Sequence record: PX969468.1
Reading direction: 5' to 3' (one strand)
Length of the DNA: 64,000 nucleotides
Source: a phage
Position 1 is the first letter of the stretch. Each line of letters opens with the position of its first letter. The notes under the pieces were generated by a model. It did not search any database and was not told the origin of the DNA. It worked only from the letters and a program-made list of their open reading frames with translations. Positions 5,749 through 13,978 of this stretch are shown in pieces. The translations under genes were made by a program, and so were the position numbers.

Positions 5749-6017
5749 TACTCGGCCTCTTCCTTAAAAATTTTAAACATCTCTTCTTTACTCATTACCA
5801 ACCAGTCTCCCATAAAGTCAACTAACCAATCTCCCTGGTACAAGACTAGGTTACCAAACGGCTCTACAAGCTCACACATGCGACGAAGATCTCTGGTCCG
5901 AACAGGTGACGATGTAAACACACCTGTATCAATCCACCGTTGCAGATCAGATACTGATGAAGAGCTTCCGTCAAACTGGTGTGCTTCTACAGGTTTAGCA
6001 AGATTAAATAACGGCAT
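5748..6017 (-). CDS. hypothetical protein
   Basis: 89-codon ORF tightly packed between neighbours. Confidence 0.35.
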   Translation of the reverse strand: MPLFNLAKPVEAHQFDGSSSSVSDLQRWIDTGVFTSSPVRTRDLRRMCELVEPFGNLVLYQGDWLVDFMGDWLVMSKEEMFKIFKEEAE

Positions 6018-9675: not shown

Positions 9676-10230
9676 ATGAAATACTTTGTAACAAGCGACA
9701 CACACTTTCTCCACCAGCGGGTAATGGAGTTCGACTCATGTCAAAAACACAGATCTCAGTATGATCACAATCTTGACAGTATGAATGCGGGAATCATCAC
9801 CAAGTGGAACTCTGTTGTGTCACCTGCAGACACTGTGTTTCACTTGGGGGATATTGCGTGCACTAATGATAAGAATATCAACAAATTGCTTCCAGATGTT
9901 CTAAATATGTTGAACGGACATATTATTCTTGTTCGTGGTAACCATGACACAAGGACGACTGTCAGAATTATGAAAGAGTTCGGTCATGAGGTTGTAGATT
10001 ATTACGAGCTTCGCCACAACAAGAATTTGATCTGTATGAGCCATTACCAGTTTGCAAAGTGGAACAGAAAGCCTCACGGATCAGTCCAACTGTTCGGTCA
10101 TGCTCACGGAACCACACAGCAGTTGTTTGGCAGGCAGTTTGATGTCGGTTGGGATGTGTGGGGGAGACTCTTACCATTAGAAGAGGCATACCGTATTGCA
10201 ATGAGTCTTGCTATTGACAGCGGGGAGTAA
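9676..10230 (+). CDS. calcineurin-like metallophosphoesterase
   Basis: 184 codons; SDTHF, GDI, GNHD and GHAH motifs in canonical order. Confidence 0.6.
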   Translation: MKYFVTSDTHFLHQRVMEFDSCQKHRSQYDHNLDSMNAGIITKWNSVVSPADTVFHLGDIACTNDKNINKLLPDVLNMLNGHIILVRGNHDTRTTVRIMKEFGHEVVDYYELRHNKNLICMSHYQFAKWNRKPHGSVQLFGHAHGTTQQLFGRQFDVGWDVWGRLLPLEEAYRIAMSLAIDSGE

Positions 10231-10277
10231 TCCCTGCTATTTTAAAGAAAATTGCCACACAAGGAGAATCAGGAGAT

Positions 10278-10628
10278 ATGAAAGATGAGGATAAGCTGCT
10301 ATATCTTAAAGTCCCCCTTGAAATACTGTCTATGTCAAAAGTTTTGAATGGCACAACTGGGGAGGTTGTTGTTCTTGACTTATATGACAAGATCGTATAC
10401 TGCTACCTGCACAACTGGTATAAGCTTGGAGAAAATTCACGCTTCACACCCAGCACCAGGAAAATTGCAGCAGATGTTGGGATAAAGAAAACAAAAGCAG
10501 CAGCGTGCGTTAAAACTTTAGAATGTGCAGGAGTGGTTGAAATATCCACACAAGGGAGAGGTAAAAGATGCACATTTTCCAAAGTTTTGCCACCAGAAGA
10601 AGTTATTCGAATGTCAACAACTGGTTAG
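10278..10628 (+). CDS. putative DNA-binding protein (winged-helix/HTH-like)
   Basis: 116 codons; segment TRKIAADVGIKKTKAAACVKTLECAGVVEI has helix-turn-helix character; GGAG RBS. Confidence 0.35.
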   Translation: MKDEDKLLYLKVPLEILSMSKVLNGTTGEVVVLDLYDKIVYCYLHNWYKLGENSRFTPSTRKIAADVGIKKTKAAACVKTLECAGVVEISTQGRGKRCTFSKVLPPEEVIRMSTTG

Positions 10629-10702
10629 ACCAGTAAAAACTTAAACATCTGTACTATAAGGATTTGTATGTTTTATGTTCACTCTGGAGCAGAAGTTAGT
10701 AA

Positions 10703-10783
10703 CTGTCCGTGATACGGACACTACTGTCCGTCACGCGGACACATCTGCCCGTAATACGGACACTAACTGTCCGTGATACGGAC
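10703..10783. repeat. four tandem 17-bp palindromic sites TGTCCGT-N3-ACGGACA spaced 21-22 bp apart
   Basis: copies at 10703, 10724, 10745, 10767; first and fourth are perfect palindromes, second and third have 1-2 substitutions. Confidence 0.85.
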
Positions 10784-10826
10784 ACATAAAGAATATAACT
10801 AAAATAACTAAATAATAAAAAATAAA

Positions 10827-10886
10827 AGATCTAGTACTTATGGTACTAAAGTACATATACTTAACTTATGTAGAATATACTAGATC
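10827..10886. repeat. AT-rich region with inverted repeat GATCTAGTA...TACTAGATC containing two GATC sites
   Basis: 9-bp arms about 40 bp apart read directly; internal GTAC-rich palindromic segments. Confidence 0.7.
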
Positions 10887-10919
10887 CTAAGTACCATGTT
10901 TTAAATTTATTACTTATTA

Positions 10920-11285
10920 TGGGTAGTGTCGGCCCTTCATTGGCACTCGCCTACGAGGGGCGAGATGCCGGGCCTCCATAGTGCACACAATAACAGAAGT
11001 GCATACATGCAGGACTGTTAACATGTGTGGGAACGAAGCGATAGCGCAGGCCAAAGGCCGAGCACTAATGTGGACCACCGACGAAAGCTTGCCAGCGCCG
11101 GAAGGAGTCGGTTGAGAGCCTCCCGCGCGAGTTCGGATAAAGTTTATGTGTGGAAACTGACAAGAAGGACCCTAAATCGCTCCACAGCTATATAAACTAT
11201 ACCAAGTAAGGCAATCGCACCAGTTTGATAGAAAAGCTCGTTACAAAGCGATACAGTGAGTTTTTCTATAACTTGAAGAGGAGGC
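10920..11285 (+). other. GC-rich structured noncoding segment (candidate ncRNA)
   Basis: no ORF of 60 codons or more on either strand across 10629..11289; nested complementary stems such as GGCCC...GGGCC, CGCC...GGCG, GGCC-AAA-GGCC, GGAG...CTCC. Confidence 0.3.
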
Positions 11286-11289
11286 TGCT

Positions 11290-11868
11290 ATGAGTTCACG
11301 CAAAGATGCCAGTGAAAAGATTGCAAAACGTTATCAGAATGAAGAACAGATGGAGAAAACTTTCAAGTGGAAGCCAGGTTTCCAGCGTAATCATTCTAAC
11401 GCTCGTGATCGTAAGCATCCTGATAAGTGGCTAACACCGCCAAATGATGGCATGCAGGTTGGTGATGAGAAGGAGCTATCACCTGGAAAAGATGGCAACT
11501 ACATTCGCACTAAGGACGCTAGTCCAAAGGATGACAGCTATCTTGTAGATAAGGTTCTTAATGGTATTGATGTAGATGTTGACACTACACGGAACTTTTT
11601 TCTTGGGTGGTATCGCACAGGTTTTTTCGACATCAAGGCCATTCGTCGTGTTTGTGATATTAAAAAGTCTGCATATGATGACGACTCGTTACATCGCACA
11701 CTGAGACAATATTCAGAAAGATATGGTCATCCGGTTATCACTCTTGACGATGTTAACGAAGTGATGTATCATGCAGAGGTTGTTGCAGGCAGATTTGGTG
11801 ATGCATATCTTGATATCCTTTCTGCAAACGATGAGGTAATGTTGAATAAGATTTACTACGAACGTTGA
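11290..11868 (+). CDS. hypothetical protein
   Basis: 192 codons; strong RBS GAGGAGG; N-terminal half charged/low complexity. Confidence 0.5.
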   Translation: MSSRKDASEKIAKRYQNEEQMEKTFKWKPGFQRNHSNARDRKHPDKWLTPPNDGMQVGDEKELSPGKDGNYIRTKDASPKDDSYLVDKVLNGIDVDVDTTRNFFLGWYRTGFFDIKAIRRVCDIKKSAYDDDSLHRTLRQYSERYGHPVITLDDVNEVMYHAEVVAGRFGDAYLDILSANDEVMLNKIYYER

Positions 11869-13166: not shown

Positions 13167-13241
13167 GCCCTGTTAGCTTAGTGGATAAAGCAGCGGCCTT
13201 CTAAGCCGTTGACACTGGTTCGAGTCCAGTACGGGGTGCCA
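13167..13241 (+). tRNA. tRNA-Arg (anticodon TCT)
   Basis: hand-folded cloverleaf: acceptor GCCCTGT/ACGGGGT (two G-U), D-arm GCTT/AAGC, anticodon loop CTTCTAA, T-arm ACTGG-TTCGAGT-CCAGT, encoded CCA. Confidence 0.6.
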
Positions 13242-13245
13242 AATT

Positions 13246-13332
13246 GGGGAGTTATCCCGTAGAGGTAGCGGTGTAGACTGTAAATCTATTGTCATTGCGA
13301 CTCGGGTGGTTCGACTCCACCACTCCCCACCA
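13246..13332 (+). tRNA. tRNA-Tyr (anticodon GTA), long variable arm
   Basis: acceptor GGGGAGT/ACTCCCC, anticodon stem GTAGA/TCTAT with loop CTGTAAA, T-arm GGTGG-TTCGACT-CCACC, encoded CCA. Confidence 0.6.
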
Positions 13333-13446
13333 AATTTATATTTTTAAATGCATAAATCATACAGATAATGACATTGATATTTATCGTCGTTTATACTAGT
13401 CACTAACTGCTCGAAAATCAGTGTCATTATCAGTGTAATTTATAAA

Positions 13447-13537
13447 GGAGGGTAGGGAGCAATGGTGCTCAAGCGGTCTTGAAAACCGTCCCGTTGAGGA
13501 TGACTCGATGATGGTTCGATTCCATTACTCTCCGCCA
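13447..13537 (+). tRNA. tRNA-Ser (anticodon TGA), long variable arm
   Basis: acceptor GGAGGGT/ACTCTCC, anticodon stem-loop GCGGT-CTTGAAA-ACCGT, T-loop TTCGATT, encoded CCA. Confidence 0.55.
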
Positions 13538-13635
13538 CATTGTTGACCTTGTAATTAAGCGAAAGCCGGAAGCAGAACCGGATTATCAAATGTTACAGTC
13601 GTCATCGCCGACTAGCCACATGGTCAACATATTGC

Positions 13636-13735
13636 GCTAGGTAAGCCCTTTGGCAAGGGCGAGGATTTTTAATCCTGAAAATAGACGAGGTAGTCGTTGA
13701 ATACATAGGTGGTTCGATTCCATCACCTAGCACCT
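13636..13735 (+). pseudogene. atypical tRNA-like element (Lys-TTT-like 5' half, ~30-nt insert, no encoded CCA)
   Basis: perfect 7-bp acceptor GCTAGGT/ACCTAGC, D-arm GCCC/GGGC, anticodon-like loop TTTTTAA, T-arm GGTGG-TTCGATT-CCATC, but about 30 nt between anticodon arm and T-arm and CCT instead of CCA. Confidence 0.3.
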
Positions 13736-13738
13736 TTT

Positions 13739-13814
13739 GCTGATGTAGCACAATTGGCAGTGCAATTGATTTGTAATCAATAGGTTGCAGGTTCAAGTCC
13801 TGCCATCAGCACCA
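13739..13814 (+). tRNA. tRNA-Thr (anticodon TGT)
   Basis: perfect acceptor GCTGATG/CATCAGC, D-arm GCAC/GTGC, anticodon stem ATTGA/TCAAT loop TTTGTAA, T-arm GCAGG-TTCAAGT-CCTGC, encoded CCA. Confidence 0.7.
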
Positions 13815-13815
13815 T

Positions 13816-13890
13816 GGCCCTGTAGCTGGAAGGTTCAAGCAAGCGACTCATAATCGCCAGACGGTGGTTCAATTCCACCCAGGGCCACCA
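13816..13890 (+). tRNA. tRNA-Met or Ile2 (anticodon CAT)
   Basis: perfect acceptor GGCCCTG/CAGGGCC, anticodon loop CTCATAA, T-arm GGTGG-TTCAATT-CCACC, encoded CCA. Confidence 0.6.
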
Positions 13891-13901
13891 AATAATAAAT
13901 A

Positions 13902-13978
13902 CTCCGCGTAGCTCAGCTTGGTAGAGCGCCTGATTTGGGATCAGGAGGTCGAGTGTTCGAATCACTCCGTGGAGACCA
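13902..13978 (+). tRNA. tRNA-Pro (anticodon TGG)
   Basis: acceptor CTCCGCG/CGTGGAG, canonical D-arm GCTC-AGCTTGGTA-GAGC, anticodon stem CCTGA/TCAGG loop TTTGGGA, T-arm GAGTG-TTCGAAT-CACTC, encoded CCA. Confidence 0.7.

Follow-up and report, generated by a model that had tools for sequence, protein, structure and literature searches.

The stretch of phage DNA analysed here, 64,000 nucleotides of sequence record PX969468.1 and called the window throughout, comes from an rV5-like coliphage of the genus Vequintavirus. At positions 10278..10628 of the plus strand lies a gene encoding a 116-residue winged-helix protein that consists of a DNA-binding domain only. Behind it, a non-coding region of 662 bp (10629-11290) comprises a spacer, four palindromic sites, an AT-rich tract, an inverted repeat, a GC-rich block and the leader of the next gene. 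Over the 1.1 kb around the palindromes the window is 99.4% identical to phage vB_EcoM-ECP26, and this region is matched in 119 GenBank phage records. Here, we describe a computational dissection of the locus, in which the palindromes emerge as the probable iterons of a replication origin and the 116-residue protein as the proposed origin-binding initiator.

The palindromic array and its surroundings

The array consists of four 17-bp palindromes whose starts are spaced by 21, 21 and 22 bp, with a direct-repeat unit of 22 nt (TAACTGTCCGTGATACGGACAC). Iteron 1 (10704..10720) and iteron 4 (10768..10784), the latter adjoining the AT-rich region, share the perfect palindrome TGTCCGTGATACGGACA; the half-sites of iteron 1 are invariant in relatives and its central bases vary. 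Iteron 2 (10725..10741) reads TGTCCGTCACGCGGACA, and iteron 3 (10746..10762), which has C at half-site position 3, reads TGCCCGTAATACGGACA. The centres of the sites are GATAC, CACGC or AATAC, none of them poly-A. An earlier note on this DNA had described four sites of the form TGTCCGT-N3-ACGGACA starting at 10703, 10724, 10745 and 10767. The sites are real, but each of these starts lies one base too far left, agreeing with ours if the preceding C is counted. Measured against that consensus, sites 1 and 4 are perfect, as the note held, and sites 2 and 3 carry one substitution each rather than one to two. Its placement of the array 75 bp past the stop codon (10628) and just before an AT-rich inverted-repeat region is correct. 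The conserved core is TGTCCG-N5-CGGACA, and when variation among relatives is included TG(T/C)CCG-N5-CGGACA fits better than the longer consensus.

Within the genome, this core is peculiar to the locus. At no more than one mismatch it matches the window exactly at these four places, compared with a mean of 0.07 matches in shuffled versions of the window; four matches were reached in none of 100 dinucleotide-preserving shuffles. A complete relative genome of 136,204 bp (OR992645) contains no further site at the same tolerance. There is thus no other copy of the palindrome in the window or in the complete 136-kb relative.

Directly beyond the array, the AT-rich tract at 10786..10826 (41 bp, ATAAAGAATATAACTAAAATAACTAAATAATAAAAAATAAAA) is built of 9-bp periodic TAACTAAA(A/T) units and is a candidate DNA-unwinding element. 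The 40-mer starting at 10786 is 92.5% AT, the window maximum, a value reached by only three overlapping windows of 63,961, and the 100-mer from the same position (82% AT) is the single most AT-rich 100-mer of the 64-kb window. The tract is followed at 10827..10887 by a compound inverted repeat (AGATCTAGTA...TACTAGATC) that contains the inner palindromes GTACTAAAGTAC and TACATA..TATGTA as well as two GATC sites. The DNA fold of 10690-10920 has a z score of -5.95.

Conservation of the locus among relatives

We aligned the locus of 16 Vequintavirus relatives and counted variable positions among the 12 that have all four copies. Only 2 of 48 half-site positions vary, both by T/C exchange at position 3, and the central N5 segments vary at 5 of 20. 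Variation is similarly sparse in the AT-rich tract (3/41) and in the inverted repeat (3/61), compared with 40/116 for the third codon positions of the 10278..10628 gene and 25/71 for the spacer between stop codon and array (10629..10699), the least constrained segment of the region. Judged from these counts, purifying selection on the AT-rich tract and the inverted repeat is stronger than on synonymous sites. Among the individual variants, a T7-to-C exchange in site 2 of phages Aya and WM restores a perfect palindrome, TGTCCGC-CAC-GCGGACA, and site 3 of phiWec193 has TGTCCG.

Most isolates carry four copies. Three are present in O157 typing phage 4, V18 and 'Campylobacter' phage C9, through deletions of 21, 21 and 22 bp, and two in YN3, through a deletion of 42 bp. 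All of these deletions are exactly in register (loci L195, L196, L198 and L005), and such in-register variation in copy number fits iterons.

Eighteen GenBank records labelled 'Campylobacter phage' (MG0656xx) share about 97% identity with rV5-like phages of E. coli across the array region, and MG065661 and OR992645-like entries among such records bear an UNVERIFIED flag; the host labels of the MG0656xx records look doubtful. Three metagenomic contigs from Logan (L138, L142 and L143) stop within the array. Short-read assemblies break at this locus because of the iteron repeats, and the array may be under-represented in metagenomic data.

A single-domain winged-helix protein

The 116-residue protein matches PHROG 12838, 'replication initiation protein', with an E value of 2.4e-77, and three further initiator PHROGs more weakly (8102, 428 and 270; E 8e-6 to 7e-3). 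The latter families are also matched by O-like proteins that carry TGTCCG arrays. In Pfam, HTH_36 is reached at 25.2 bits (cut-off 25), and DUF6945, at 27.8 bits, falls just below its cut-off of 28.

An AlphaFold2 model, which needed an alignment of nine sequences (the single-sequence model, with a predicted local distance difference test score, pLDDT, of 33, was unusable), has a pLDDT of 82.8 and a predicted template-modelling score of 0.78. It presents a winged helix with an N-terminal beta-hairpin, and the chain ends after the wing and one short helix, with no C-terminal domain and no nuclease domain. This is the fold of the RepA_N N-terminal domain, a winged helix like that of the DnaD N-terminal domain preceded by a beta-hairpin. 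In a Foldseek search of the PDB, entry 4RO3 ranked first (E 1.2e-5, template-modelling (TM) score 0.64), followed by the staphylococcal RepA_N initiators 4PQL, 4PT7, 5KBJ and 4PTA, one of them with iteron DNA; for 4PQL, 5KBJ and 4PT7 the TM scores were 0.50-0.59 over 83-122 columns. Profile comparison with the PDB gave a corresponding result: residues 7-109 matched 4RO3 (E 1e-8), and residues 3-95 matched RepA_N (E about 7e-4). Generic repressors (CodY, LexA and MarR) were weaker matches by both structure and sequence and aligned over the core helix-turn-helix only, the structural alignment covering some 72 of 116 columns and the sequence alignment residues 50-106.

Entry 4RO3 is the N-terminal domain of the RepA protein of the Vibrio cholerae element PLE, an experimentally proven initiator that binds semi-palindromic iterons, drives replication and needs a phage helicase of superfamily 1B (SF1B); PLE RepA was itself placed in RepA_N by structure only (PMC7145576). 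Against viral models, the Foldseek matches were small DUF6945 proteins from other large phages, proteins bearing the name of replication initiators, and ICP1 ORF88. The last of these is Odn, an origin-directed nuclease whose DNA-binding domain copies that of PLE RepA (PMC8263062). The winged-helix domain is likewise fused to nucleases in remote homologues of the 116-residue protein, to GIY-YIG in P0008 and to T5orf172 in P0011, an arrangement that recalls Odn.

Palindrome arrays in other genomes

Recurrence of the array was assessed by a scan of IMG/VR on DNA alone, in which two adjacent TGTCCG-N5-CGGACA sites were required; an earlier scan for single sites had yielded mostly chance matches, and the two-site pattern was needed. 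The scan returned 19 unrelated viral loci of 40-70% GC with 3-7 copies at 20-25 bp. In 16 of the 19, the array lies within or directly after an open reading frame (ORF) with an N-terminal winged helix, and a representative of each ORF sequence group matches Pfam HTH_36 or PHROGs 270, 345, 391 or 678 ('replication initiation protein / O-like'). As for the remaining three, L118 has no family match, and the reading frames of L037 and L137 are ambiguous at high GC. Arrays inside genes encode a repeated peptide in the inter-domain linker, as does the lambda origin in the O gene. Most loci have an AT-rich dip on the gene-downstream side of the array, exemplified by a 78% AT stretch within the 35% AT locus L127 (top 0.03% of windows) and by a lambda-like A-rich purine tract in L085. 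The layout seen here is found again in L126, a 169-kb contig of 40% GC in which a gene for a 120-residue HTH_36 protein is followed by four sites directly after its stop codon.

The same two-site scan of bacterial genomes identified arrays in O-like initiator ORFs of prophage-like contigs from Treponema, Parachlamydiaceae and Actinoplanes. In Burkholderiales (L162, L164, L170, L175, L182 and others), pairs of sites 20 bp apart lie directly after the 3' end of a gene whose product ends in ...LYEKLAEIK and is presumably, from its look, a helix-turn-helix protein of the Fis type.

Similarity at the protein level leads to loci with other repeats. The gene of P0012 itself contains three copies of TGTCCC..GGGACA, after which comes an A-rich tract. 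In Klebsiella phage NDO71, a member of the related genus Mydovirus, a 122-residue remote homologue (L145, 1068-1436; hhalign probability 94.7%) adjoins three copies of TATTCC-N6-GGAATA (1445-1551) and an AT-rich region whose inverted repeats contain GATC. The 136-residue homologue PMW_115 of Pseudomonas phage phiPMW (L200, 6002-6412; hhalign probability 95.9%) is preceded by three copies of GATGGTGGACAAAATGTCC (GGACA-AAA-TGTCC; 5841-5917) and an AGATAG-rich AT/purine tract. The phiPMW repeats are situated at a strand-switch region; the GC-skew minimum published for this phage (40,001) is 1.8-1.9 kb away, and the locus is probably the counterpart module there. From these comparisons, the protein and the half-site of its repeat appear to co-vary between phage groups, which fits either cognate initiator-iteron pairs or cognate repressor-operator pairs.

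Transcription and neighbouring elements

The winged-helix gene is preceded on the plus strand by a sigma-70-like promoter at 10214..10243 (TTGACA-18-TATTTT), which scores 10/12 in a consensus scan and has a TG extension; a sigma-70 promoter, 'P76', is annotated at the corresponding position in the RefSeq record of rV5. Gene and array stand at the head of a long rightward gene block. We found no terminator-like site between 10628 and 11290 and no promoter-like site within 10700-10830 on either strand, where the rV5 record annotates none either, and the palindromes thus neither overlap nor flank a promoter that they might control. Because terminator-like and promoter-like sites are lacking in and just after the array, early transcripts probably extend across the gene, the array and the AT-rich region.

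Further downstream, a conserved GC-rich (about 60%) non-coding block occupies 10925..11130 on the plus strand and includes a hairpin of high stability at 10931-10975. All 119 relatives contain the block, with 80-99% identity and mostly without annotation; in rV5, part of it is annotated as ORF78 despite an 18-bp indel there in that phage. Its RNA fold has a z score of -2.45. The block matches no Rfam family, and six sequences contained no covariation or informative changes. The Rfam search gave nothing relevant, with a weak match to rli43 below threshold (24.6 bits against a gathering score of 100). Whether as a small RNA or as an additional element of the origin, the block could have a function, its membership in the origin being uncertain.

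The gene that follows (11290-11868) encodes a 192-residue protein, which we considered as the C-terminal domain of a split O protein. This proposal is unsupported: the protein has no Pfam or NCBIfam match, belongs only to PHROG 12226 of unknown function, and has no similarity to any ORF beside the other arrays. At least five tRNA genes are clustered at 13167-13975. Two long-arm tRNA-like matches in this cluster (13246-13328 and 13447-13533) are below the threshold for tRNA-Sec, and one is annotated as a pseudo-tRNA in a relative. The terminase genes lie about 4-5 kb downstream of the array.

A candidate replication origin

We propose that the array supplies the iterons of an initiator-dependent, theta-type origin of replication in rV5-like phages and that it is bound by the 116-residue protein, a reading to which we assign a probability of roughly 0.7. 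Of the three roles that the earlier note had offered for an operator or iteron array, the origin is thus favoured, because initiators with proven iteron binding are relatives of the neighbouring protein, because the window reaches its highest AT content right beside the array, and because the same palindrome arrays recur in lambda-O-like initiator genes of unrelated phages. A partition-like site is unsupported, the phage being lytic and no ParA/ParB-type gene lying nearby. The label 'replication initiation protein' is already given to the gene by annotation pipelines; the literature that we searched contains no description of a Vequintavirus origin or of TGTCCG/ACGGACA iterons, so that the iterons and the origin of rV5-like phages are so far undescribed there.

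In the mechanism that we infer, the early-expressed 116-residue protein would bind each 17-bp palindrome as a dimer, the centres of the two half-sites being 11 bp, or one helical turn, apart. The spacing of 21-22 bp corresponds to two helical turns and would set the four dimers on one face of the DNA, which they could bend or wrap into a nucleoprotein complex resembling the lambda O-some. Strain released in the adjoining 41-bp, 92.5% AT tract would then lead to melting. Since the protein is without a second domain, helicase and replisome would have to be loaded by other phage proteins. Candidates are the DnaB-like primase/helicase and the PIF1/RecD-like SF1B helicase that rV5 encodes (PMC3606486). 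Transcription from the promoter upstream of the gene may help opening, as it does at the lambda origin.

Several observations weigh against this interpretation. Neither RepA_N (PF06970) nor Phage_rep_O is among the Pfam matches of the 116-residue protein at E <= 1, and BLASTP of the protein against lambda O yields nothing. The protein also lacks the C-terminal recruiting domain found in lambda O and in RepA_N initiators. Its family is small, with nine matches at E <= 1e-3 among 1.84 billion representatives; the homologue search returned only relatives of at least 85% identity and one at 33%, and a search of IMG/VR for related loci recovered no relative of the protein. Some of the proteins nearest to it in sequence carry a fused GIY-YIG or T5orf172 nuclease, its closest relatives P0013, P0014 and P0007 have no visible repeat array nearby, and some relatives without an array stand beside genes that we take, from reading the downstream ORF by eye, to be HNH-like. 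Because some of its relatives are fused to nucleases or lie beside such genes without an array, the winged-helix domain is a general DNA-targeting module. Nor is the palindrome exclusive to origins, because two-site pairs occur in another context in Burkholderiales metagenome-assembled genomes. No DnaA box and no IHF or Fis consensus site is found near the array, and GATC is not enriched there. The cumulative GC-skew minimum, 1.5-2 kb from the array, is consistent with an origin; it coincides with the switch in transcription direction at about 9150 and is not independent evidence, because it is confounded with gene orientation. The authors of the rV5 genome paper, who noted this, had tried skew analysis, found the origin inseparable from transcription and left it undefined (PMC3606486).

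Among other explanations, we consider it unlikely, as a lesser alternative, that the array is the transcriptional switch of the earlier note, an operator or roadblock at which the protein would block or time read-through from early promoters into the genes from 11290 onward (tRNAs, lysis, structural) in an early/late switch with no role in replication. Many records do call the protein a 'putative transcriptional regulator', gene and array stand at the start of a rightward gene block with no terminator between them, and generic winged-helix repressors such as CodY, LexA and MarR also match, though more weakly. In the Mydovirus phage and in phiPMW, the repeats lie upstream of the gene in promoter-bearing intergenic regions, so that an operator role is equally natural there, which counts against the origin reading. 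Yet the array in the window overlaps no promoter-like site, and the full-length best matches of the protein are initiators, whereas repressors match the core helix-turn-helix only. An operator would also leave unexplained the most AT-rich and strongly constrained tract that adjoins the array, as well as the palindrome arrays in O-like initiator genes and the AT-rich dips of unrelated phages.

Quite improbable, in our view, is a site for some other DNA transaction, for example packaging (a pac site for a small terminase), recombination, or cleavage by a homing or origin-directed nuclease, with the nearness of the winged-helix gene incidental or the protein a targeting factor. The terminase genes a few kilobases (about 4-5) downstream, the recombinogenic nature of an array that changes copy number in register, the remote homologues with GIY-YIG or T5orf172 domains and the structural neighbour Odn of ICP1 (PMC8263062) are all in keeping with it. 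The 116-residue protein, however, has no nuclease domain, no genome terminus or terminase small-subunit signature is linked to the site, and both the AT-rich element and the link to initiator genes across lineages would go unexplained; moreover, nucleases of the Odn type target origins, so that the site would still be an origin. Least probable of all is a role in RNA, as four stem-loops in the read-through transcript that serve, for example, as processing or protein-binding sites. Transcription of the region from the upstream promoter is probable, and each site can fold as a 7-bp stem with a 3-nt loop. But the mismatch in site 2 (T7/G11) allows a G-U pair on the plus strand only, and those in site 3 (C3/A15) and in the site 4 variant of WM on the minus strand only. 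Because the mismatches fit opposite strands, an RNA hairpin is disfavoured and protein reading of duplex DNA favoured. Variation is moreover concentrated at positions 7-11, including the pairs that close the stem, the 6-N5-6 pattern of constraint fits a protein that reads double-stranded DNA, and there is no Rfam match.

A wider picture may be sketched, which we offer as tentative and rather doubtful as a whole. A minimal single-domain initiator related to PLE RepA and DUF6945 would be common to several unrelated groups of large lytic myoviruses, candidates being Vequintavirus, Mydovirus and the phiPMW group. Its action would be confined to marking and distorting its cognate palindromic-iteron origin, with helicase loading left to other phage factors as in PLE. 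The specificity for the TGTCC/GGACA half-site would be ancient, extending from Actinobacteria to Spirochaetes and Chlamydiae, and shared by initiators that have otherwise diverged beyond the reach of BLAST, and the domain would have been recruited into GIY-YIG and T5orf172 origin-directed nucleases.

Phages of the rV5 group are common candidates for E. coli therapy and biocontrol, and their origin has never been defined. A precise candidate, with four iterons, an unwinding element and the gene of the likely binder, makes replication initiation in these phages directly testable. In phage engineering it could be used for origin-based shuttle or amplification vectors and as a site to avoid when genes are deleted, and it is a possible target for satellites or origin-directed nucleases. 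Beyond this group, TGTCCG-N5-CGGACA arrays with an AT-rich dip constitute a simple DNA signature by which lambda-type origins can be found in metagenomic phage contigs.

Comparison with known systems

The origins of iteron plasmids (RepE of F, pi of R6K, RepA of pPS10, TrfA of RK2) have the initiator gene beside tandem sites and an AT-rich unwinding element, and their initiators have the winged-helix fold. The locus described here resembles them in each of these respects. It differs in the nature of the sites: plasmid iterons are asymmetric direct repeats bound by monomers, with dimers bound to separate inverted-repeat operators, whereas each repeat here is a palindrome, as in lambda, and there are no DnaA boxes.

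The RepA_N initiators, PLE RepA (4RO3) and the RepA proteins of pSK41/pTZ2162 (4PQL, 4PT7 and 5KBJ), are the best matches over nearly the whole 116-residue protein. Initiators of this type act as dimers on semi-palindromic direct repeats at the origin (PMC7145576). PLE RepA works with the replisome of a phage and its SF1B helicase, and a PIF1/RecD-like helicase is encoded by rV5. The C-terminal domain of RepA_N proteins, specific to the genus, has no counterpart in the 116-residue protein. Typical RepA_N iterons converge on a poly-A tract, whereas those of the window are palindromic direct repeats without a poly-A centre; the phiPMW relative has AAA at this place.

A close parallel in DNA is the lambda origin. 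In the lambda genome (NC_001416) the iterons, TCCCTC-AAAAC-GAGGGA and variants, have the form 6-N5-6 with starts 20, 24 and 23 bp apart, and are followed by an AT-rich tract of about 40 bp and then by a palindrome. Two to three of these iterons, combined with the AT-rich tract, are enough for unwinding and replication (PMC7466680). Both loci have four iterons that are 17-18-bp palindromes of 6-bp half-sites 5 bp apart, at a spacing of 20-24 bp in lambda and 21-22 bp here. In both, an AT-rich tract of about 40 bp comes directly after the iterons and a palindrome after that, the inverted repeat at 10827..10887 occupying the place of the lambda palindrome to the right of the AT-rich region. The order of DNA-binding-domain coding sequence, iterons and AT-rich tract is the same, and the lambda origin is transcribed through, as is predicted for the one here. 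The half-site, in contrast, is TGTCCG rather than TCCCTC, and no pairwise similarity between lambda O and the 116-residue protein is detected. The lambda origin is embedded in the O gene at the linker that joins two domains, whereas the gene here ends 75 bp before the array; O has a second domain, whereas the 116-residue protein has one domain only, and no loader like lambda P has been identified here. In this comparison the design of the locus is that of lambda and RepA_N origins, with the twist that a putative single-domain initiator is placed in front of the proposed origin.

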